From Clostridia bacterium (GTDB taxonomy: Bacteria; Bacillota; Clostridia; Peptostreptococcales; JAAYPU01), in NCBI GenBank assembly GCA_016278615.1, contig JADQBM010000067.1, positions 7,143 through 71,142 on the forward strand: DNA of 64,000 bases, read 5' to 3'. Below are positions 4,738-62,321 of the stretch, one piece after another. Under the pieces are notes generated by a model. It did not search any database and was not told the DNA's origin. It saw only the letters and a list, made by a program, of their open reading frames with translations. A program made the translations under genes and the position numbers. How positions within the stretch are numbered: the stretch's first letter is position 1; every line of letters starts with the position of its first letter.

Positions 4738-6534
4738 TTAATCTATCCCTATCATCTTCATAAGATATAAAGCATTCCTTGTTGTAGAAATACCTTCTCT
4801 TAGTTGGTAATCAAAACGAATTTCGTTATCCTTATAATATTCTTGAAAATGATAATTTTTAATTGTATTCTTGCTTTCTCTTTCTAAAACCCCTAACTCA
4901 AGGTCATGGGTTGATACAAGACCTATATATCCCTTGCCCTGTAGTTGTTTGACTAACTTTTTTGCACCTATATGTCGATCATAAGAGTTCGTCCCTTTGA
5001 GTATTTCATCTAGGATAAAGAATACTTGTATATCCTCCTCAGTAGCTTTCACTATTTCTTTAATTCTTAATAGTTCTCCATAAAATGAGGATATACCTTT
5101 CTCAAGATTATCACTTATTCTCATGCATGTATGGATGCTAAAAAGTGAGCATATCATGGATCTCGCACAAACTGGCGCTCCTGCATAGGCAAGTACGAGA
5201 TTGATGCCTATTGTTCTCAGAAAAGTGCTCTTTCCAGACATATTAGAGCCAGTTATTAACAATATTTGTAAAGAGTCCTGAATATTTACATCATTACAAA
5301 CTTGTCTATTTGTGAGCAAGGGGTGCCCTATTTCCTTGGCTTGAAGCAATGAAGGTTTCTCAGTAATTTGTGGCATTGTCCAGTTTGGGTAATCGTATGC
5401 TATAGTCCCAAAACTAGAGAGTGCTTCAATCTCACCTATCTTTTGTAACCATTCCTCAAGTATTAATCCAGACTCTCTTTTCCACCGTTCCAGTTCAATT
5501 AAGCATTGATAATCCCATAGAAAAATCACATTAATGAGAAGAAAGATCATATTGTTTCTGTTTTCAATCCTACCAACCAATATCTCTAGTCTTTTCAATT
5601 GTTGTGGAGCGGATAAGCCTTTATTGTTGAATAACCCATCACTTAATTCCCTAAGATATCTAGATCTAAAGTTTACTTTTTCAAGGTTCCCCAGTATCCT
5701 TTTGTATACTTTAATACTCTTCTTGTACTTATAAACTTGGGTAAACTCCCAATTCCTTTTTTTTAGATTAATAGTAAGGAGCATGAATTGAAAAATAATT
5801 AGTAATAATGGAATCCCTTCTATGATGATATGCGCTACAAAAGCTAATAGAAAGGTACTTATTGTGATAATAGGCAACACACGAAATATTCCAATCATAA
5901 AAACACGACAATATAATGGTTGTTTCGTTTTAGCCCAGTTTATTAAAGCTTCAATATTGACACTCTTTTCGTCAAGCATTCTTCCTTCTACCTGAAGTTT
6001 ATGTCTTAACCATCGCTTAGTCGATAATTCACTGATTGCTTCCTGCCTTTTAATGATTGTCTCTTTATCTTTATATGGCTGTTTCAAGATATTTGAGAGC
6101 CTAACTCTTCCCATATAAGTATTCGCAGAATTAATCCACTGAAAGAGAGATCCTTGTCCAAAAATATCAAGGTCATAGGAGAACTTGTGTTTTTCATCTA
6201 TAAAATCTTCTCCACTATCTTTAAACTCAGTCCATCTACCTTCTAACCTCTTAATAGAATCAACATTTACATCTATAAGGATAGATATATACTTATGTGC
6301 TTCTCTGAGTTTCCTATGTCTTATAACCAGGTAGCTAAACAATAGCATCCACAGCAATGAAATGCTCCCAGTAATCAGCTGTCCTCCTAAACTGCTTGCA
6401 AAGATTAAGGTAACAATTAAAGCTCCTGCAGTTACCAATCTTAGCAGGCTAATAACATTCATATTTTTTGACACCTTATCTAATAATCGTCCATAATATC
6501 GGACTCTTCTTTTGTATATCTTCATGGAATCCAT
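4738..6534 (-). CDS. Membrane-associated MutS-related ATPase (MutS domain V only, no mismatch-binding domain)
   Basis: 598-aa ORF. Walker A LITGSNMSGKSTFLRTIG, a DEILKGT Walker B-like motif and the STHDLEL motif of the MutS ABC-type ATPase. Two hydrophobic helices near the N-terminus and two more near residues 200-250. Confidence 0.8.
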   Translation of the reverse strand: MDSMKIYKRRVRYYGRLLDKVSKNMNVISLLRLVTAGALIVTLIFASSLGGQLITGSISLLWMLLFSYLVIRHRKLREAHKYISILIDVNVDSIKRLEGRWTEFKDSGEDFIDEKHKFSYDLDIFGQGSLFQWINSANTYMGRVRLSNILKQPYKDKETIIKRQEAISELSTKRWLRHKLQVEGRMLDEKSVNIEALINWAKTKQPLYCRVFMIGIFRVLPIITISTFLLAFVAHIIIEGIPLLLIIFQFMLLTINLKKRNWEFTQVYKYKKSIKVYKRILGNLEKVNFRSRYLRELSDGLFNNKGLSAPQQLKRLEILVGRIENRNNMIFLLINVIFLWDYQCLIELERWKRESGLILEEWLQKIGEIEALSSFGTIAYDYPNWTMPQITEKPSLLQAKEIGHPLLTNRQVCNDVNIQDSLQILLITGSNMSGKSTFLRTIGINLVLAYAGAPVCARSMICSLFSIHTCMRISDNLEKGISSFYGELLRIKEIVKATEEDIQVFFILDEILKGTNSYDRHIGAKKLVKQLQGKGYIGLVSTHDLELGVLERESKNTIKNYHFQEYYKDNEIRFDYQLREGISTTRNALYLMKMIGID

Positions 6535-32149: not shown

Positions 32150-32359
32150 CTATTTTAAAGGGTCATTTCCTCCTGGATGAAAAGGATTGCACTTTAATAT
32201 CCTTTTAATACCAAGAAAGAGACCTTTAATTATTCCATATTTTTGAATCGCCTGTATCATATATTCTGAGCAACTTGGATAAAAACGACAAGAAGCAGGC
32301 TTTAATGGAGAAATAATTTTTTGATACGTTTTAATTAATATTATCACAAATTTCTTCAA
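32150..32359 (-). CDS. yidD: Membrane protein insertion efficiency factor YidD
   Basis: 69-aa ORF with [10 protein letters not shown] and [10 protein letters not shown] signatures. Confidence 0.92.
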
Positions 32360-32703
32360 ATTTCTTTACCTGAAAATAATTTAATTTTTCTTAATAGTAA
32401 TTCAGTAGATTTTACCAATTCAGTAAATTTTACATCATTGATATTTTTTCTGGCAATAAATATTAAATCATATCCCTTACATAATTTATTTTTATATAAA
32501 AGATGTATTTCTTTCATGCGTCTTTTTGCTTTATTTCTTATAACACTTTTCCCTACTTTTTTACTTGCAAGAAATGCAGTTCTATTATATCCTAAATTAT
32601 TTTTTTTATAAAAAATAACAATGTGCTTTGAAGCTACTGATCTCCCACTTTTATAAATAATTGAAAAATCCTTATTTCTCCTTAGGATATTGGTTTTTAA
32701 CAT
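32356..32703 (-). CDS. rnpA: Ribonuclease P protein component
   Basis: 115-aa basic [21 protein letters not shown] is an RNR-motif-like sequence. Downstream of rpmH. Confidence 0.92.
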
Positions 32704-35906: not shown

Positions 35907-37160
35907 ATGAATATAGTAAAAAGAGATATATCCCAAAAGAGAGCCATAGAGTTAAAGGAAAAAATCAAAGAATATCTATCTAAGAAAGAAAAAATTGATA
36001 AAGGACTAGAAAAAAAAGAAGAAATACTCAAAAGAAAAAAAATAATATTAGATGTTTTAAATGGGACAGAAGAAGACTGGAATGATTACAAATGGCAATT
36101 AAAAAACAGGATTAATAAGGTTGATGTATTAAATAAAATAATTAGTTTATCAGAAGACGAAAAAAAAATATTAAATGATGTCAGTGAAAAATATAGGTGG
36201 GGTATATCCCCATACTATTTAAGCTTAATGAATTTTACAAAAAAATATGGACCCATAAGATTAATGTCCATACCTCTTTTAAATGAAATTAAAGATACAT
36301 ATGGAATGCTTGATCCTATGAGTGAAGAATACACAAACCCAGCCGGTTGCATTACAAGAAGATATCCTGATCGTCTTATTTTAAATGTTACAAATGAATG
36401 TGCCATGTATTGTAGATTTTGCCAAAGAAGAAGAAATATAGGACAACAAGATAAAGTAAAAAGCAAGGATATTATAGATGAGTCTATTGATTATATAAAA
36501 GCAAATGAAGAAATAAGAGATGTATTAATTACTGGTGGAGATGCACTAACCTTGAATGATCAAATTTTAGAAGATATTATTAGCAGGGTAAGAGCAATTG
36601 AACATGTTGAAATTATACGTATAGGAACAAGAACACCGGTTACAATGCCCCAAAGAATTACAAAAGAGCTATGTGACATGTTTAAAAAATACCATCCAAT
36701 GTATATCAATACACATTTCAATCATCCCATGGAAGTAACGGAAGAAGCTAAAAAAGCCTGTGAAATGTTATCAGAAGCAGGGATACCTCTTGGAAATCAA
36801 GCTGTTTTATTAAATGGAATTAATAATAGTCCTCATGTTATGAAATGTTTAAATCAAGAATTATTAAAGTGTAGAGTTAAACCTTATTATATTTTTCATG
36901 CAAAGAGTATCAAAGGGACTTCGCATTTTTCTACATCCATTGAAGATGGATTAGCCATTATGAATAATTTAAGAGGCTTCACTTCAGGAATGGCCATACC
37001 AACATACATTGTTAATGCACCAAAAGGAAAAGGAAAAGTTCCTCTAAATAGCAATAATATTGTTGAAAAAGGTGATGGATACGTTGTTATAAAAACTTGG
37101 GAAGGTGAAAAACTTAAAATAAAGAACCATAACACCATTAATATAAAACAAGTTAAATAA
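35907..37160 (+). CDS. eam: KamA-family radical-SAM/PLP aminomutase with the glutamate 2,3-aminomutase residue signature
   Basis: 417-aa ORF. The CAMYCRFCQRRR CxxxCxxC cluster is at Cys165/169/172. It aligns with Clostridium subterminale lysine 2,3-aminomutase at a constant +40 offset. PLP Lys337 corresponds to K377. Lysine-binding Asp293 and Asp330 are replaced by K333 (codon 36903) and N370 (codon 37014). Confidence 0.7.
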   Translation: MNIVKRDISQKRAIELKEKIKEYLSKKEKIDKGLEKKEEILKRKKIILDVLNGTEEDWNDYKWQLKNRINKVDVLNKIISLSEDEKKILNDVSEKYRWGISPYYLSLMNFTKKYGPIRLMSIPLLNEIKDTYGMLDPMSEEYTNPAGCITRRYPDRLILNVTNECAMYCRFCQRRRNIGQQDKVKSKDIIDESIDYIKANEEIRDVLITGGDALTLNDQILEDIISRVRAIEHVEIIRIGTRTPVTMPQRITKELCDMFKKYHPMYINTHFNHPMEVTEEAKKACEMLSEAGIPLGNQAVLLNGINNSPHVMKCLNQELLKCRVKPYYIFHAKSIKGTSHFSTSIEDGLAIMNNLRGFTSGMAIPTYIVNAPKGKGKVPLNSNNIVEKGDGYVVIKTWEGEKLKIKNHNTINIKQVK

Positions 37161-37468: not shown

Positions 37469-38581
37469 ATGCGCATAAAAAGCTTGTTTATTAATAATTT
37501 TAGAAATTATGATTGTGAAGAAATTAATTTCCATGATAAAGTAAATATTATTATAGGAAACAATGCTCAAGGAAAAACAAATTTACTTGAAGCTTTATAT
37601 ATGATGTCCATGGGTAAATCTTTTAGAACCAATCGGGATCATGATATGATAAGATTTAATGAACAAAAAGCCTTTATAAAAACTTTATGTATAAAAGAAG
37701 ACTCACAACTTAACATAGATATTACATTGGATCAAACCCAAAAAAAAATAATTAAAAAAAATGGTTTAAAGTTAATAAGAAACACGGAAATTTTGAATCA
37801 TATATACATGGTGGTTTTTTCACCAGAAGATCTAAAAATTGTAAAAGAAGGGCCTGAAAAAAGAAGAAATTTTATAAATAGAGAACTTTGTCAAATAAAA
37901 CCTTTGTATTATCATAATTTATATAAATACAGTAAAGTTTTATTACAAAGAAATGCGTTTTTAAAAGATTATAAATATGAAAAGTATGATAAAAACATGT
38001 TAGATGTTTGGAATAAAGAAATCATCCGTTATGGCTTACATCTTGTTAAAAAAAGAAAAGAATTTATAAACAAATTGAATCTATTGAGTCAAGAAATACA
38101 TAAAAATATTACAAATGGTGAAGAAAACATTGAATTATTCTATGAATCTAATGTTTTTCAAAACACAGAAAATTTAATACAAGAAGATATTTATATTAAA
38201 AAATTAGAAGAAAGTATAAAAACAGATTTTTATCGAGGAAATACAAAAATAGGACCACATAAAGATGATATTAGAATCATGGTTAACGATAAAGATGTAA
38301 GATATTTTGGATCGCAAGGACAGCAAAGAACAGCTTCTTTATCCTTAAAGCTCGCTGAGATAAAATTAATATATGAAGAAACAGAAGAAGTTCCCATATT
38401 ACTATTGGATGATGTTTTATCAGAACTTGATAGCTCAAGACAAAAATATTTGATAAATTCCTTAAAAGATGTCCAATTATTTATTACAACAACAGAAATA
38501 AGTGAATTTTTAAAAGAAAGCTTAAAAGAAAACTATATATTTGAAGTGAGCAATGGAAAAGTTAAAAGAGGAGAACTCTAA
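37469..38581 (+). CDS. recF: DNA replication and repair protein RecF
   Basis: 370-aa ORF. Walker A GNNAQGKTNLLEA, the signature GSQGQQRT, and Walker B LLLDDVLSELD. Confidence 0.96.
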   Translation: MRIKSLFINNFRNYDCEEINFHDKVNIIIGNNAQGKTNLLEALYMMSMGKSFRTNRDHDMIRFNEQKAFIKTLCIKEDSQLNIDITLDQTQKKIIKKNGLKLIRNTEILNHIYMVVFSPEDLKIVKEGPEKRRNFINRELCQIKPLYYHNLYKYSKVLLQRNAFLKDYKYEKYDKNMLDVWNKEIIRYGLHLVKKRKEFINKLNLLSQEIHKNITNGEENIELFYESNVFQNTENLIQEDIYIKKLEESIKTDFYRGNTKIGPHKDDIRIMVNDKDVRYFGSQGQQRTASLSLKLAEIKLIYEETEEVPILLLDDVLSELDSSRQKYLINSLKDVQLFITTTEISEFLKESLKENYIFEVSNGKVKRGEL

Positions 38582-38662
38582 TATAGATATAAGAAAATTT
38601 TATAAAAATGTAATTATCCAATAACTGCTTTCCACCATAGTATATTATAAGAGGTGATAAGA

Positions 38663-39343
38663 ATGGCAGTTATTTTAGTCTATAACAATGACACAAATGC
38701 AATAGAAAGGTATCAAAGAAACGAAAACGATATAATGCCTTATGTTTATAACAACAGCCTTACAGTAAATGAATTTAGAGGCTCTTCAAATGCAAATCTT
38801 TTATGGACAGATAAAAGAACCATGGAAACCTGGAGTCGTTTCCGAGATTTTTATGGTGCAGCAATACCAGTAGGTTTTGCTTTTAAGAGAATTTGGGAAG
38901 GTGGACATAGCCCTCAATCTCAACATTATGCTGGAACAGCCTTGGATGTAGGTCAGGCTTTAGCACCGGCACAAAGAAATAGACTGAGACAAAGAGCCAT
39001 TGATTTTGGACTCTGGAGTTATGTGGAACCGGCTTATCTCACCCCAACATGGGTGCATATGGATAAAAGAAATCTGAATCCAGCTTGTGTCAGTGGGTAT
39101 CCTTTATTAAGATTAGGAGATGCAAGTAGTTATGTACTTATTCTCCAAGATGCATTAAATGCTTTGGGGTATACGGGTTCAGGTTTAGATGGTGTTTTTG
39201 GTAGTGGGACTGATGCTGCAGTTAGAAGATTTCAACAATCATTTGGTATTCCTGCTGATGGAATTGTGGGATGCGTTTCTTGGACACTGTTAACTCAATC
39301 AGCCAGAGGTATTGGTCAAACGGCAACAGTTGTAAATCCATAA
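38663..39343 (+). CDS. LAS-type zinc peptidoglycan peptidase (M15-like) fused to a PG_binding_1 domain, no signal peptide
   Basis: GAGGTGA RBS lies 5 nt before MAVILVY. The metal motifs SQHYAGTALDV (HxxGxAxD) and TWVHMD are present. The C-terminal LQDALNALGYTGSGLDGVFGSGTDAAVRRFQQSFGIPADGIVG is a classic peptidoglycan-binding repeat. A hand-counted 100-nt sample is 47% G+C, against 23% in recF. Confidence 0.7.
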   Translation: MAVILVYNNDTNAIERYQRNENDIMPYVYNNSLTVNEFRGSSNANLLWTDKRTMETWSRFRDFYGAAIPVGFAFKRIWEGGHSPQSQHYAGTALDVGQALAPAQRNRLRQRAIDFGLWSYVEPAYLTPTWVHMDKRNLNPACVSGYPLLRLGDASSYVLILQDALNALGYTGSGLDGVFGSGTDAAVRRFQQSFGIPADGIVGCVSWTLLTQSARGIGQTATVVNP

Positions 39344-39384
39344 GTAATAAAGATTATTTCAAAAAAATGGATAGAGATAAGTAA

Positions 39385-39409
39385 AAAGACAGAAGATATT
39401 TCTGTCTTT
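39385..39409 (+). terminator. Terminator-like hairpin after the peptidase gene
   Basis: AAAGACAGAA-gatat-TTCTGTCTTT. The U tail is weak. Confidence 0.45.
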
Positions 39410-39590
39410 AGCTATATAACGAGTTTAAAACGTATATAGAAAGTTTAAATCTTGCTCATATTGAAGAAAAACCGATTTAGTAATATTTTTTTATCAAAAG
39501 ACTAAAAATACTTTAAAAAGTTATATTAAAAGATTATAATAGTATAAGTGTCCTGATGTAATATATAAAGATAGACGATAAAAGAGGTGA

Positions 39591-41510
<1,920 letters not shown>

Positions 41511-44101: not shown

Positions 44102-44167
44102 AAATTCTATTTTATTATGAAAAAAAATGGGTATATATTAATTGTCATTACAAGGAGGTTATTTAAA

Positions 44168-44488
44168 ATGACTTTGGAACTAAAAAGTATCTTTAATAAT
44201 CAGTTAAATCAGTGGGTTATTGAGGTTCAAGGTGAGATTGATGTTTTCACAGCAAAAGATTTCAGAGAAGAACTGATTAGAACTTACAATGAAAAACAAG
44301 AAAATATTATTCTTGATTTTGGCAACCTTAATTATCTAGACAGTACGGGTTTAGGTGTCATTATAGGCGCTTATGGGAGAATGAAAGAACAGGGAAAAGA
44401 AATCTCCATTAAGAATGCAAAGTCGAATATATTAAAACTTATGACCATAACGGGTTTGGACAAGATACTAATCAAATCAAATTGTTAG
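44168..44488 (+). CDS. rsbV: Anti-sigma-factor antagonist (STAS; RsbV/SpoIIAA type)
   Basis: AGGAGG RBS precedes MTLELKSIF; the ORF track start at 44117 is upstream. The phosphorylatable-Ser context is NLNYLDSTGLGVIIG. Confidence 0.85.
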   Translation: MTLELKSIFNNQLNQWVIEVQGEIDVFTAKDFREELIRTYNEKQENIILDFGNLNYLDSTGLGVIIGAYGRMKEQGKEISIKNAKSNILKLMTITGLDKILIKSNC

Positions 44489-44522
44489 TAATTTGGTAAA
44501 ACAAACAGAAGGAGAGAAAGAA

Positions 44523-44924
44523 ATGGTCGATTTATTAAAATTCTCTATTCCCGGAAAACCGGATTATGTAGGAGTTGTTCGCTTGGCAGTTTCATCTGTT
44601 GCCAATAGAGCAGGTTTTGATATCGAAGCGATAGAAGATATAAAAGTTGCTGTATCAGAAGCTTGTAACAATGCTATTCTTCATGGAATTCATGAAAATT
44701 GTTGTAATTACGAAGTAGCTTGTTTTTTAGATGAAAAAAAACTAACCATAGTAATTGATGACCAAGGGGAAGGATATAATACCATTGACTACTTGGAGCC
44801 AGATCTAAAACATCCGAAAGAAGGCGGTTTAGGGATTTTTATTATTAAAACTCTCATGGACGAGGTAGAAATAATGTCAGATAAAATAAAAGGGACTACG
44901 ATCAAGATGACAAAATATATTTAA
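44523..44924 (+). CDS. rsbW: Anti-sigma factor serine kinase (RsbW/SpoIIAB type)
   Basis: AAGGAGAG RBS precedes MVDLLKFSIPGKPDYV. HATPase_c N-box (SEACNNAILHG) and G-boxes (DDQGEGY, GGLGIFI). Confidence 0.85.
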   Translation: MVDLLKFSIPGKPDYVGVVRLAVSSVANRAGFDIEAIEDIKVAVSEACNNAILHGIHENCCNYEVACFLDEKKLTIVIDDQGEGYNTIDYLEPDLKHPKEGGLGIFIIKTLMDEVEIMSDKIKGTTIKMTKYI

Positions 44925-44938
44925 TTGAGGGTGTTGTA

Positions 44939-45718
44939 ATGAATATAAGGGATTTGTCTGAAAAAAGCATATCTGACAGTTCAAATGTAGAGTTATTTAT
45001 GAAATACAAAGAAACCAAAGACATAGAAATAAGAAATGAATTAATTCAAAGATATCTCTATATAGCAGATATACTTGTAAAAAAATATGTTAATAAAGGG
45101 ATTGAATATGATGACTTATACCAAGTGGCATCACTTGGATTAATTCAAGCTGTTGAAAGATATGATTTGGGAAAAGGTTTTGAATTTGGAAGCTTTGCAA
45201 CCCCAACTATTTTAGGAGAAATCAAAAGATATTTTAGAGATAAGGGATGGGCGATTCGCGTCCCCAGAAGGTCACAAGAAATATCCCAAAAGCTTCAGAG
45301 CGCAAAAGAAAAACTTTCTCAAGAATTACAACGAACACCAAAGGTATCAGAACTGGCAGTATACTTAGATACCACAGAGGACGAAATTTTGCAAGCCATG
45401 GAGGCCTCATCGGTTTTTGAAATAAACTCCCTTAACCAAAAATATGATAATGATGGAAGTGATAGGGATTTAAAATTAGAGGAAGCTTTAGGGGTAGGAG
45501 ACCATAATTTTAGGAGACTTGAGAACCAGGATATGATAAAAAAGGTTTTAGCATTGATGCCCCATGTAGAAAAAGAAGTTTTTGTACAAAGATTCTTGCA
45601 AGAGAAGACTCAAGGAGAAATTGCAAAAATGATGCAGGTATCACAAATGACTATTTCAAGGATGGAAAAGAAAATCATTAACCGTTTTAAAGATGAGATG
45701 GTAAAGATTGAGATGTGA
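44939..45718 (+). CDS. sigB: Group-3 sigma factor, SigB-like
   Basis: 259-aa ORF. Region 2 FATPTILGEIKRYFRDKGWAIRVPRR and RTPKVSELAVYLD resemble B. subtilis SigB more than SigF. Region 4 HTH is QGEIAKMMQVSQMTISRMEKK. It sits in an rsbV-rsbW-sigB operon. Confidence 0.75.
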   Translation: MNIRDLSEKSISDSSNVELFMKYKETKDIEIRNELIQRYLYIADILVKKYVNKGIEYDDLYQVASLGLIQAVERYDLGKGFEFGSFATPTILGEIKRYFRDKGWAIRVPRRSQEISQKLQSAKEKLSQELQRTPKVSELAVYLDTTEDEILQAMEASSVFEINSLNQKYDNDGSDRDLKLEEALGVGDHNFRRLENQDMIKKVLALMPHVEKEVFVQRFLQEKTQGEIAKMMQVSQMTISRMEKKIINRFKDEMVKIEM

Positions 45719-60820: not shown

Positions 60821-60850
60821 AAGGTTGAAGCGGGTGCTTCAACCTTTTAT
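60821..60850. terminator. Bidirectional terminator between the convergent M23 and S8 genes
   Basis: AAGGTTGAAGC-gggt-GCTTCAACCTT (11-bp stem) followed by TTTAT. It abuts the S8 stop codon. Confidence 0.75.
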
Positions 60851-62163
60851 AATAGTAAATAAATCAGAAACATTAAGTTCATATCATCTGCCTTAAAGGG
60901 AAGTGAAGCTGCTTTTTTTTGTCTTCGCGATTCCGAGGGGTTTTTAGGAATTATAATGGGTGGGGAATTAACTGTTTTTTTTACATTGAGCATTTTAGTG
61001 ATATCAGCTACGCCGGCACCTTGTGAGATTCTTGGTTCTCCTCTGATGGGAATAGCTGTACTTTTTAAGGCTCTTTTTGCTTGCTCGGGAAGGACATTGC
61101 CCTCTTTTTCATAAAGAAGTGCCAAAGCGCCACTGATGAAAGGTGTAGACATTGAAGTTCCAGAGTGGGTAGTATATCCGCTTAAATTTCTATTTGAAAG
61201 GGATACAATATCTACTCCTGGTGCCATAATATCTGGTTTTATTCCTCCTGTTAAAGTAGGGCCCCTGCTAGAAAATTCTGCAACAAATAGATCTTCATAA
61301 GAGGTGGTTCGATTATCGTCAATAGAGCCAACGGTTATAACAGAAGGACTGATACCAGGAGAATTAATGGTTCTCCTGTTTGGACCACTGTTACCTGCAG
61401 CAGTAACGACGCATAAGCCATAGTTAGAAGCTGCAGTAGCACCTTTTGCAAGAGGATCCTCTCTATAGGATGTATCTGCTGGTGTTCCAAGGGATAAATT
61501 TAGTATTTTTATGTTATATTTATCTTTGTTGTCTACAACCCACTGCATGCCTGCCAAAATATCTGATGTTGAGCCACTACCTGTTTCATCTAATGTTTTA
61601 ACAGCGATAATATCTGCGTCAGGCGCTATCCCTTTATAACTTGATCTCGAAAAACCATTTCCTGCTGCAATTCCTGCTACGTGTGTGCCGTGACCATCAT
61701 CATCATAAGGGGTTTCCCGATGATTGATAAAATCTTTGAAAGCTACGATTCTATTAGTCGGTCGTACCAAATCATGATGAGGTGCTACGCCTGTATCTAT
61801 GATAGCAATTCCGATTCCTTTTCCAGTATATCCTGAATTATTGACCACTCTTGACCCCATAAACTCTCCGGCAATATTTACTGTTTTAAATACCTTGTTG
61901 TCATCGTCAATGAATTTTATCATATTATGAAGTGCAATAGGATCAACACTTTCTGAAGGAATTTCTGCTGCTACAGCATTAATAAAAGGCAATTCATATT
62001 TTATTTTGCCCTTCTTTTCTACAACACAATCTTTTATTTCATTAATGGTTCTATTGGAATAAATAATAACTTGCAACGATTGTTTGGTTCCTGCAGAAAT
62101 TCGTGCTGCAACCATTGGATGAACAAATTTAGATCTTACTTTTCTCATATTCATAAAGATCAC
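60847..62163 (-). CDS. Subtilisin-like S8 serine peptidase, no obvious signal peptide
   Basis: 438-aa ORF. The catalytic triad contexts are IAIIDTGV (Asp), HGTHVAG (His) and GTSMSTP (Ser). The N-terminal region is propeptide-like. The exact start is uncertain, as several Met codons are close together. Confidence 0.85.
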   Translation of the reverse strand: MIFMNMRKVRSKFVHPMVAARISAGTKQSLQVIIYSNRTINEIKDCVVEKKGKIKYELPFINAVAAEIPSESVDPIALHNMIKFIDDDNKVFKTVNIAGEFMGSRVVNNSGYTGKGIGIAIIDTGVAPHHDLVRPTNRIVAFKDFINHRETPYDDDGHGTHVAGIAAGNGFSRSSYKGIAPDADIIAVKTLDETGSGSTSDILAGMQWVVDNKDKYNIKILNLSLGTPADTSYREDPLAKGATAASNYGLCVVTAAGNSGPNRRTINSPGISPSVITVGSIDDNRTTSYEDLFVAEFSSRGPTLTGGIKPDIMAPGVDIVSLSNRNLSGYTTHSGTSMSTPFISGALALLYEKEGNVLPEQAKRALKSTAIPIRGEPRISQGAGVADITKMLNVKKTVNSPPIIIPKNPSESRRQKKAASLPFKADDMNLMFLIYLLL

Positions 62164-62321
62164 TCCAATACTTTTTTCAATTCATAGTATGTTTCAATAG
62201 AAAGGAGTGTTAAAGGTAATGAGAAACAGATATTCCATAAAGTGTATGTTACAAAAAGAATACAAGGTGTTATAATAGGTGTTCAGGAAGATACAACTTA
62301 AAATTAAAGGGGGAAAATGAA

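Follow-up and report, generated by a model that had tools for sequence, protein, structure and literature searches.

A leaderless, putative M15_3-like peptidase gene between recF and gyrB of a Clostridia bacterium is preceded by a conserved sigma-K-type promoter motif

Gene X at the recF-gyrB junction

We analysed a 64,000-nucleotide (nt) stretch of a Clostridia bacterium genome (contig JADQBM010000067.1), called the window throughout, and in particular a gene between recF and gyrB that we refer to as X. Its coding sequence (38663..39343, + strand) comprises 226 codons plus a stop and specifies a leaderless, putative M15_3-like peptidase with a PG_binding_1 domain. The gene order is rnpA, rpmH, dnaA, dnaN, a KamA-type radical-SAM gene, yaaA (S4), recF, X, gyrB, gyrA, spoIIAA, spoIIAB and sigF. 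A protein identical to X (P0001) is present in public assemblies with matching gene order.

RemB/DUF721 is the usual gene of the recF-gyrB gap in Bacillus. In the window, this gap (38582-39596) contains no open reading frame (ORF) of 40 or more amino acids (aa) besides X, hence no DUF721 gene, and the Pfam matches on X are PG_binding_1 and a weak M15_3 match alone, with no DUF721 domain. No phage genes were found around X, with no holin, integrase or repeat nearby; the neighbours are replication and sporulation core genes. On both points the locus is as described in the initial annotation, which had X in place of a DUF721-type gene and saw no phage genes in the vicinity.

A ribosome-binding site, AGAGGTGA (38650..38657, + strand), lies upstream of the ATG at 38663, and AGAGGTGAT at this site is invariant across five syntenic loci. 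In an alignment of 30 homologues, the proteins share a start at an identical Met-Ala. The furthest possible upstream start is an in-frame GTG at 38654 and, because the ORF cannot extend past it, there is no room for a hidden leader.

Domain architecture and putative active site

The C-terminal part of X is a PG_binding_1 domain (39134..39271, + strand; aa 158-203 by Pfam, structural domain at about aa 147-215), recognised by PF01471 with an E-value of 2.5e-16 (60 bits against a cut-off of 23). Its three-helix fold superposes in Foldseek with a root-mean-square deviation (rmsd) of 0.7-1.0 A on the SleB N-domain 6tci, on 5tv7 and on phiKZ gp144. The nearest solved structures are 6tci (E 7.5e-9; rmsd 0.9 A) and C. 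difficile 5tv7, and the nearest peptidoglycan-binding domains are those of SleB and SleC.

The N-terminal part is a putative, divergent Peptidase_M15_3 (LAS) catalytic domain (38753..39082, + strand; aa 31-140 by hhalign). The full protein scores 12.3 bits against PF08291 (E 0.19; gathering cut-off 23.2) and the N-domain alone 13.8 bits; sub-threshold matches to this family occur in 21 of 25 family N-domains, the best with an E-value of 1.4e-4. In a profile comparison, the X-family N-domain profile aligned by hhalign to a profile of 25 Pfam-verified M15_3+PG_binding_1 proteins with a probability of 95.9% and an E-value of 5.7e-9, over aa 31-140 of X and 19-125 of the M15_3 proteins. The alignment pairs the S-H-G-A-D and H-x-D-x-R motifs of the two families. 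In the Pfam-verified proteins, S79, H81, G84, A86, D88, D122 and R124 are invariant and H120 nearly so, and the ligand motifs of X align to these positions.

In X, the S-x-H-x-x-G-x-A-x-D motif reads SQHYAGTALD (38918..38947, + strand; aa 86-95), with H88 and D95 as putative zinc ligands. H132-M-D134 (39056..39064, + strand), within WVHMD (aa 130-134), would supply the third zinc ligand and the catalytic acid, and H132, D134 and R136 align with the FVH(I/V)D-R of M15_3 proteins. Across the 30 homologues, H82, S86, H88, G91, D95, H132, D134 and R136 are invariant, so that the zinc-ligand pattern H88-x6-D95 plus H132-x-D134 is kept throughout. The two features named in the initial annotation, LAS-metallopeptidase motifs and a PG_binding_1 repeat, are thus both present. 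We conclude that the catalytic domain is probably of the M15_3/LAS type, though divergent, and that its putative metal site is intact, and from the sequence we infer zinc dependence and the bond cut.

Phage proteins with the same architecture also align with X. A temperate phage protein of 214 aa, which matches Peptidase_M15_3 (E 2.4e-17) and PG_binding_1 (E 5.9e-17) and whose gene ends the late region, followed by a few small genes and then the integrase gene, aligns to aa 32-210 of X, with SYHLYGRAFD opposite SQHYAGTALD and FVHID opposite WVHMD. The top fold match of X in BFVD is an L-alanoyl-D-glutamate peptidase with a peptidoglycan-binding domain (E 4.7e-6). Searches of solved structures were less informative for the catalytic part. 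Foldseek matches of the full-length model in the PDB are limited to the peptidoglycan-binding domain, and phmmer and hmmsearch of X against PDB sequences returned PG_binding_1 proteins and weak hedgehog domains and nothing else. With the N-domain profile, the best PDB sequences were hedgehog N-domains over the zinc motif (weak, E 0.35-1.2). NCBIfam and PHROGs recognised the binding domain of X and not the catalytic domain.

X differs from its phage relatives by an N-terminal hairpin of 31 residues, by the invariant insertion WEGGH and by its conserved C-terminal tail. The N-terminal extension (38663..38755, + strand; aa 1-31) is family-specific: both the hhalign and the BLASTP alignments with phage M15_3 proteins begin at aa 31-32. 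AlphaFold2 predicts it as a beta-hairpin with strands at aa 2-8 and 13-19 and a predicted local distance difference test (pLDDT) score above 90. The tail, G-I-G-x-T-x-T-V-V-x-P (39308..39340, + strand; aa 216-226), is conserved and modelled with pLDDT below 50; G216, G218 and T220 are invariant and T222 nearly so. Two cysteines are also conserved, C142 in the inter-domain linker (39086-39088, invariant) and C204 in the binding domain (39272-39274, at least 90%). A disulfide is possible, as is a role of the tail as a targeting or partner-binding signal.

Absence of an export signal

Neither a signal peptide nor a transmembrane (TM) segment was found in X by hydropathy, the maximum Kyte-Doolittle value over 19 residues being 1.15, lower than is typical of a TM segment. 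Lys and Arg are absent from residues 1-8, and hydrophobic runs at the N-terminus do not exceed six residues. Residues 2-19 are instead modelled as the confident beta-hairpin described above, and the N-terminus is conserved. X also has no LPXTG-type sorting signal and no hydrophobic anchor, and its hydropathy and N-terminal composition do not fit an autolysin exported by Sec or Tat. The initial annotation had called this an endolysin-like design without signal peptide or TM segment, and the hydropathy profile and the alignment with phage M15_3+PG_binding_1 proteins bear this out.

An exhaustive profile search of 1.84 billion representatives recovered 346 clusters at E <= 1e-3. In the full-length representatives listed (approximately 200-245 aa), the domain begins within the first few residues, so the leaderless design is a property of the family as a whole.

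Base composition and codon usage

The initial annotation considered X to be compositionally foreign, citing hand-counted 100-nt samples of 47% G+C in X and 23% in recF. The counts themselves are exact for X (47% at 38901-39000) and approximately right for recF (25% at 38001-38100). As a sign of an anomaly, however, they mislead: the sample from X is its G+C peak, while recF is among the lowest-G+C genes of the window (24.4%), with one ORF of 115 aa (32356-32703) below it. A 100-nt segment of gyrB also reaches 49% G+C. The immediate neighbours of X range from 24 to 35% G+C, and the contrast with them is exaggerated because G+C content is lower in the origin-proximal block than in the window overall, which averages 33.3% (recF, 37469-38581, + strand, 24.4% with G+C at third codon positions (GC3) of 0.17; dnaN, 26.4%).

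Over its whole length, X is 39.4% G+C compared to 33.2% +/- 3.4 for the 53 other genes of the window (z 1.8), two of which are richer. The excess is distributed very unevenly among codon positions. GC3 is 0.22 against a window mean of 0.269 (z = -1.0), with 44 of the 53 genes higher; the value at first positions is 0.49 (z 1.4); and at second positions it is 0.467 against a mean of 0.301 (z 3.8), the window maximum. The synonymous codon choice of X fits window usage better than that of 48 of the 53 other genes, placing it in the top tenth. X is enriched in Ala, Gly, Arg, Trp and Pro and depleted in Lys, Ile and Glu. Because the excess sits at codon position 2 and third positions are native, it is an amino-acid effect.

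The same pattern is seen across the family. At each of the 86 loci examined, the G+C content of the family gene exceeds that of the flanking DNA, by 8 points on average (range 2-19), and it tracks that of the host from 33% to 64% (r = 0.97). The G+C offset of X therefore reflects the conservation of an amino-acid sequence across A+T-rich genomes and does not mark foreign DNA: a conserved protein rich in Ala, Gly, Arg and Trp, encoded in a 33% G+C genome, mimics foreign DNA even though its third codon positions are native. The largest offset of all is at L081 (DUUL01000094.1, 1.6 kb, binned as 'Candidatus Moraniibacteriota'), where the member is 52% G+C and the flanks 33%; this is probably a binning error rather than a homologue from the candidate phyla radiation.

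Conservation, distribution and phage carriage

The order recF-X-gyrB is kept in the four closest genomes among the matches listed, which are L007 (an Anaerovorax odorimutans metagenome-assembled genome), L008, L009 and L010. In this order of genomes, identity to the window is 83, 81, 79 and 74% for X, 90, 89, 87 and 84% for gyrB, and 75, 71, 67 and 65% for recF, and the identity ranking is the same for gyrA. Since four other species keep the slot and X has diverged in step with the core genes on either side, X appears to be vertically inherited at the recF-gyrB junction. The recent horizontal acquisition proposed initially is not supported by these data, and it is further contradicted by the breadth of the family: with each GTDB species represented by one genome, a scan detected members in at least 596 species genomes. 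The checks that had been suggested along with that proposal, codon usage and GC3, compared here with window genes, and presence in sister genomes, thus came out against it, and a false horizontal-transfer call is removed for X.

Among the matches listed, the taxa identified are Clostridia and Erysipelotrichales. One homologue, P0038, is from the cultivable species Anaerobacterium chartisolvens. Outside the clade of the window, the gene occurs elsewhere, as mutS2-X-clpS, leuA-X-ykuD or acetyltransferase-X...mraZ, 3' of a sortase gene, or near ksgA. The literature searched yielded no curated name or paper for the family; databases describe its members as 'peptidoglycan-binding protein' or 'hypothetical', and cluster look-ups were uninformative. 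Judged from these comparisons, X probably descends vertically within a compact, strongly conserved, uncharacterised family, and already stood between recF and gyrB in the common ancestor of its own clade.

Phage carriage of the family is negligible. Four members were found in the 2.9 million viral contigs of IMG/VR, and three of these lie no more than about 4 kb from where their contig stops. Two INPHARED 'Bacteriophage sp.' records with members of approximately 50% identity (GenBank MT835563 and MT836301) were considered as phage carriage and rejected, as they are UNVERIFIED contigs with proS, genes for an EF-G-like GTPase and a sirtuin and further bacterial housekeeping genes, and resemble bacterial chromosome fragments.

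Promoter motif and transcription unit

We read 110 nt upstream of X in all loci and counted CATA in the region from -70 to -12. In the window, a -10 box of the sigma-K/sigma-E type (CATAnnnTA), CATAGTATA, lies 27 nt before the ATG (38636..38644, + strand). A CATA box stands 20-45 nt before the start codon nearly everywhere in the family, irrespective of host G+C or neighbouring gene. CATA was found upstream of X in 74 of 80 loci, compared to 146 of 567 neighbouring control genes (26%), and the full CATAnnnTA in 53 of 80 (66%) compared to 19 of 567 (3%; Fisher p ~1e-41), with about 4 in shuffled sequences.

In C. difficile, sigma-E and sigma-K share a common -10 element and differ in the -35 element, which is ATA for the former and AC for the latter (PMC3789822). 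In 51 of the 74 loci with a CATA box, AC occurs 16-17 nt 5' of it, compared to 9% of 7,897 random CATA sites, while the sigma-E-type ATA at the -35 position is found in six of 74, i.e. at the background level (9.6%). The box-anchored consensus is T/G-A-A-C-C/A-A, 16-17 nt, then C-A-T-A-w-w-A-T-A. When the upstream sequences were collapsed to 49 clusters, the box was retained in 33 and AC-16/17-CATA in 25. The conserved motif upstream of X has the sigma-K pattern, suggesting recognition by sigma-K.

For the window itself, a -35-region block, TTATCCAATAAC (38614..38625, + strand), with TATCCA at -21 to -16 from the CATA box, occupies the place of the family-wide T/G-A-A-C-C/A-A element and has TC rather than AC at 16/17 nt. 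The window and its three closest relatives carry TATCCA or TTACCCA here, with no AC at the exact 16-17 nt spacing. The case for sigma-K recognition of X in the window rests on the -10 box and on analogy with the family. In the five syntenic genomes, the last ~50 nt of the gap (TTATCCAATAAC ... CCATA..TA ... AGAGGTGAT) alone are conserved, and the distal intergenic DNA has diverged.

The gene looks like an independent transcription unit, with its own promoter, ribosome-binding site, ORF and hairpin. A simple sigma-70 scan found no sigma-70-like promoter in the gap between recF and X, and in L009 and L010 a hairpin lies right after recF. Downstream, a terminator-like hairpin with a 10-pair stem, AAAGACAGAA-gatat-TTCTGTCTTT (39385..39409, no strand assigned, scored on the - strand), separates X from a sigma-70-like gyrB promoter, TTTAAA-17-TATAAT, placed by the scan at 39512-39540.

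A perfect AC-17 nt-CATACTATG site was also seen at 62191, 28 nt upstream of the start of a subtilase (Peptidase_S8) gene (60847-62163, - strand). Other CATA-box genes of the window were considered as validation of the motif and set aside, since few were found and the subtilase is weakly Csp-like and not clearly a Csp germination protease.

Proposed role in late sporulation

The reading to which we give slightly better than even odds, from sequence features, is that X is a late mother-cell sporulation peptidase that is leaderless since no export would be needed. X would be a zinc LAS/M15 peptidoglycan peptidase with ligands H88, D95 and H132 and a C-terminal binding domain like those of SleB and SleC. 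With its own sigma-K-type promoter, it would be made in the mother-cell cytoplasm late in sporulation. Its missing signal peptide would then be explained, because a leaderless wall hydrolase made in the mother cell needs no export. How such a hydrolase could reach its substrate was left as a puzzle in the initial annotation, which listed sporulation or mother-cell lysis, autolysis and a non-lytic role side by side; the first of these now gains specific support from the conserved sigma-K-type promoter, which in principle also resolves the puzzle.

From the mother cell, X could follow either of two routes. It might be laid at the cortex/coat boundary outside the spore and cut cortex peptide stems at germination, or it might reach the mother-cell wall once the membrane fails and help to release the spore. 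The germination route is that of SleC, and access to the mother-cell wall on membrane failure has been proposed for CwlC and CwlH. We regard the two routes as nearly balanced, with a slight lean to the spore-associated one because of the SleB/SleC-like binding domain, the sleC-X pairs described below and the 58-83% identity of family members across orders. Such cross-order identity would fit a substrate with conserved chemistry such as the cortex.

Some genomic associations point in the same direction but are anecdotal. In two G+C-rich genomes, a SleC homologue is followed by X after a gap of 3-5 nt (L088, 6383-8992 and 9001-9690; L089, 1558-3783 and 3787-4470); the homologue matches C. difficile SleC 9h68 with an E-value of 5e-72 and has six PG_binding_1 repeats. 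This arrangement is operon-like, and both instances are on UNVERIFIED 'Bacteriophage sp.' records of bacterial appearance. In all loci checked, SleC stands beside X in these two alone, the other matches being PG_binding_1 cross-matches. In an Acetivibrionales lineage, the gene after X encodes YkuD (L,D-transpeptidase) plus PG_binding_1 (L098, 7879-8538; L099, 3784-4443). In B. subtilis, ykuD belongs to the spore genes that depend on sigma-K. A spore-photoproduct-lyase gene and a gene for a small acid-soluble spore protein (SASP) are also found near X in other lineages.

Several observations weigh against a late sporulation peptidase. X falls below the Pfam gathering threshold for M15_3 (12.3 against 23.2 bits), and a Foldseek search of the PDB with the N-domain model gave nothing meaningful (best E 0.47), the putative metal loop being poorly modelled. 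The loci are phylogenetically related, so the motif counts overstate independence, an objection partly met by the collapse to 49 clusters. The -35 region of the window is TATCCA, without AC at 16-17 nt, and the -10 box contains TAwwAT, so that it may also be read as a sigma-A element. SleC adjacency occurs in just 2 of ~90 contexts. Lysins are not usually as conserved as this family, whose members are 58-83% identical across orders. Finally, the literature searched yielded neither a paper on the family nor a transcriptome of any carrier.

Alternative explanations

The housekeeping character of X and its surroundings could also indicate a vegetative cytoplasmic enzyme that acts on soluble wall precursors or recycled muropeptides, as do VanX-, LdcA- or dipeptidase-like enzymes, with PG_binding_1 binding muropeptides. 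We consider this improbable. It would account for the lack of an export signal anywhere in the family, the very high conservation and fixed length, and the housekeeping neighbours (recF/gyrB, mutS2/clpS, leuA, ksgA and dcw genes), and VanX is a precedent for a cytoplasmic M15 enzyme (PMC6403190). It leaves unexplained the family-wide CATAnnnTA / AC-16/17 motif and the lack of a sigma-70-type promoter in the window. Moreover, proteins with PG_binding_1 among the matches found act on or bind wall peptidoglycan, the nearest relatives of the catalytic domain are lysins of the polymeric wall, and the taxa identified so far among the matches listed are Clostridia and Erysipelotrichales. We think it somewhat less probable still that X is a vegetative autolysin or remodelling peptidase released non-classically (holin-like, lysis-dependent or piggy-back), perhaps in connection with sortase or division-wall genes. 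A sortase gene (PF04203) is immediately 5' of X and co-oriented in 22 loci and nearby in 26, dcw genes (mraZ, rsmH, an ftsL-like gene, a penicillin-binding protein gene and murE) lie near X in other loci, and the conserved C-terminal tail could be a targeting signal. However, the sortase-linked loci form one clade, within which X is 66-98% identical, and their shared arrangement is thus synteny within a lineage; X retains a CATA-box promoter of its own at these loci; there is no LPXTG-type signal, hydrophobic anchor or holin; and the neighbours of X differ between orders. We therefore rejected sortase as a functional partner of X. Examples of the sortase-X loci are L024, L031, L049, L059 and L073, from low-G+C gut Clostridia, with the sortase gene upstream of position 5001.

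Given the composition and synteny data, it is very unlikely that X reached the origin-proximal core by recent acquisition, as a phage-derived, endolysin-like gene of foreign composition. Its architecture is that of phage M15_3+PG_binding_1 lysins, aa 32-210 align with a phage 'peptidase M15' encoded near an integrase, its G+C content (39.4%) exceeds that of its immediate neighbours (24-35%), and the position of the family varies between orders. Set against this, GC3 and synonymous codons are native, the excess is at codon position 2 and an offset of +8 points on average recurs in all 86 loci with an r of 0.97; four other species have X in this slot, diverged in step with its neighbours; the gene is in at least 596 species compared to four of 2.9 million viral contigs, the ~50%-identical phage records being unverified; identity to real phage lysins is approximately 25%; and the vicinity of X contains neither a holin or integrase gene nor a repeat. 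The family may have an ancient phage origin, which is a different matter from recent transfer. A bolder extension of the sporulation reading, which we think rather unlikely, is that the family is an ancient domesticated M15_3 endolysin placed under sigma-K, an unrecognised late-sporulation component of Clostridia and Erysipelotrichales that cuts peptide stems, working with SleC on the cortex at germination or else being the mother-cell lysin so far missing in Clostridia. If this were true, the high conservation would reflect the conserved chemistry of cortex peptidoglycan.

Mother-cell lysis and cortex hydrolysis are less well defined in Clostridia than in Bacillus. The X family is a candidate for either process: it is present in at least 596 species, tightly conserved and without a described function, and its sigma-K-type promoter offers a concrete hypothesis for substrate access. 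What is new here is the conserved CATA/AC promoter motif of the family, whereas leaderless late-sporulation wall hydrolases are already known as a kind. The advance is incremental but useful, providing a new regulatory lead on a known kind of system.

Neighbouring genes

The genes directly 3' of gyrA are spoIIAA (STAS), spoIIAB (HATPase_c_2) and a sigma-70-family, sigF-like gene (44117-45718, + strand), 4.8 kb downstream of X. Because these genes directly follow gyrA, early sporulation genes lie next to the origin in this host. Upstream, a glutamate 2,3-aminomutase gene (35907-37160, + strand; TIGR04368, 652 bits against a cut-off of 650) lies between dnaN and yaaA, the one departure from the canonical dnaA-dnaN-yaaA-recF order. 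L007, L008 and L010 have it as well, but L009 does not.

Comparison with known systems

The closest parallel in architecture is with phage M15_3+PG_binding_1 endolysins such as that of Bajarodcaudo virus 4 (XHH63602.1) and the proteins P0121-P0227. They share with X the domain order, a similar length (~211 compared to 226 aa) and the leaderless design, and their S-x-H-x-x-G-x-A-x-D and H-x-D-x-R motifs align with those of X, with the profile match of 95.9% (E 5.7e-9) noted above. Unlike these endolysins, to which its identity is ~25%, X has the N-terminal hairpin, the W-E-G-G-H insertion and the C-terminal tail, is chromosomal with no holin or lysis cassette, is near-absent from viral contigs and is preceded by a sporulation-type promoter.

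Two other comparisons concern enzymes with a similar division into catalytic and binding parts. The zinc DD-peptidase of Streptomyces albus (1lbu), a secreted enzyme, and C. acetobutylicum 4xxt likewise combine a LAS zinc peptidase with PG_binding_1, and are matched by X in the PDB via the binding domain. In contrast to X, they have the binding domain first, belong to other M15 subfamilies and show no detectable match to its catalytic domain. The hedgehog N-terminal domain, the 'S' of LAS, is similar over the metal-site region, where E-G-G-H..S-Q-H-Y-A-G-T-A-x-D of X aligns with D-G-H-H..S-L-H-Y-E-G-R-A-V-D, a stretch which we take to hold the hedgehog zinc ligands. At an E-value of 0.35-1.2 over ~50 residues, this match marks common superfamily motifs, not membership.

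The parallels in regulation are with late mother-cell enzymes. CwlC of B. subtilis is not known to have a signal peptide. CwlC and CwlH are sigma-K-dependent late mother-cell hydrolases with catalytic and wall-binding domains (PMC3789822; PMC6403190), a pattern of regulation that X would share. Unlike X, they are N-acetylmuramoyl-L-alanine amidases (Amidase_3/Amidase_2) with other binding domains, and they have no sequence relationship to it. In C. difficile, expression of sleC and of two putative mother-cell-lysis amidases depends on sigma-K (PMC3789822). SleC (9h68) resembles X in its PG_binding_1 domains, its gene has a sigma-K promoter in C. difficile as is proposed for X, and its homologue is the gene 3-5 nt 5' of X in two genomes. 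It differs in being a lytic transglycosylase made as a pre-pro zymogen and activated by Csp proteases, whereas X is a small peptidase-type protein in which no pro-region is detectable and to which the catalytic part of SleC has no match. By analogy, then, X resembles CwlC, CwlH and SleC in its presumed regulation and in the logic of its proposed deployment, and not in its catalytic fold.

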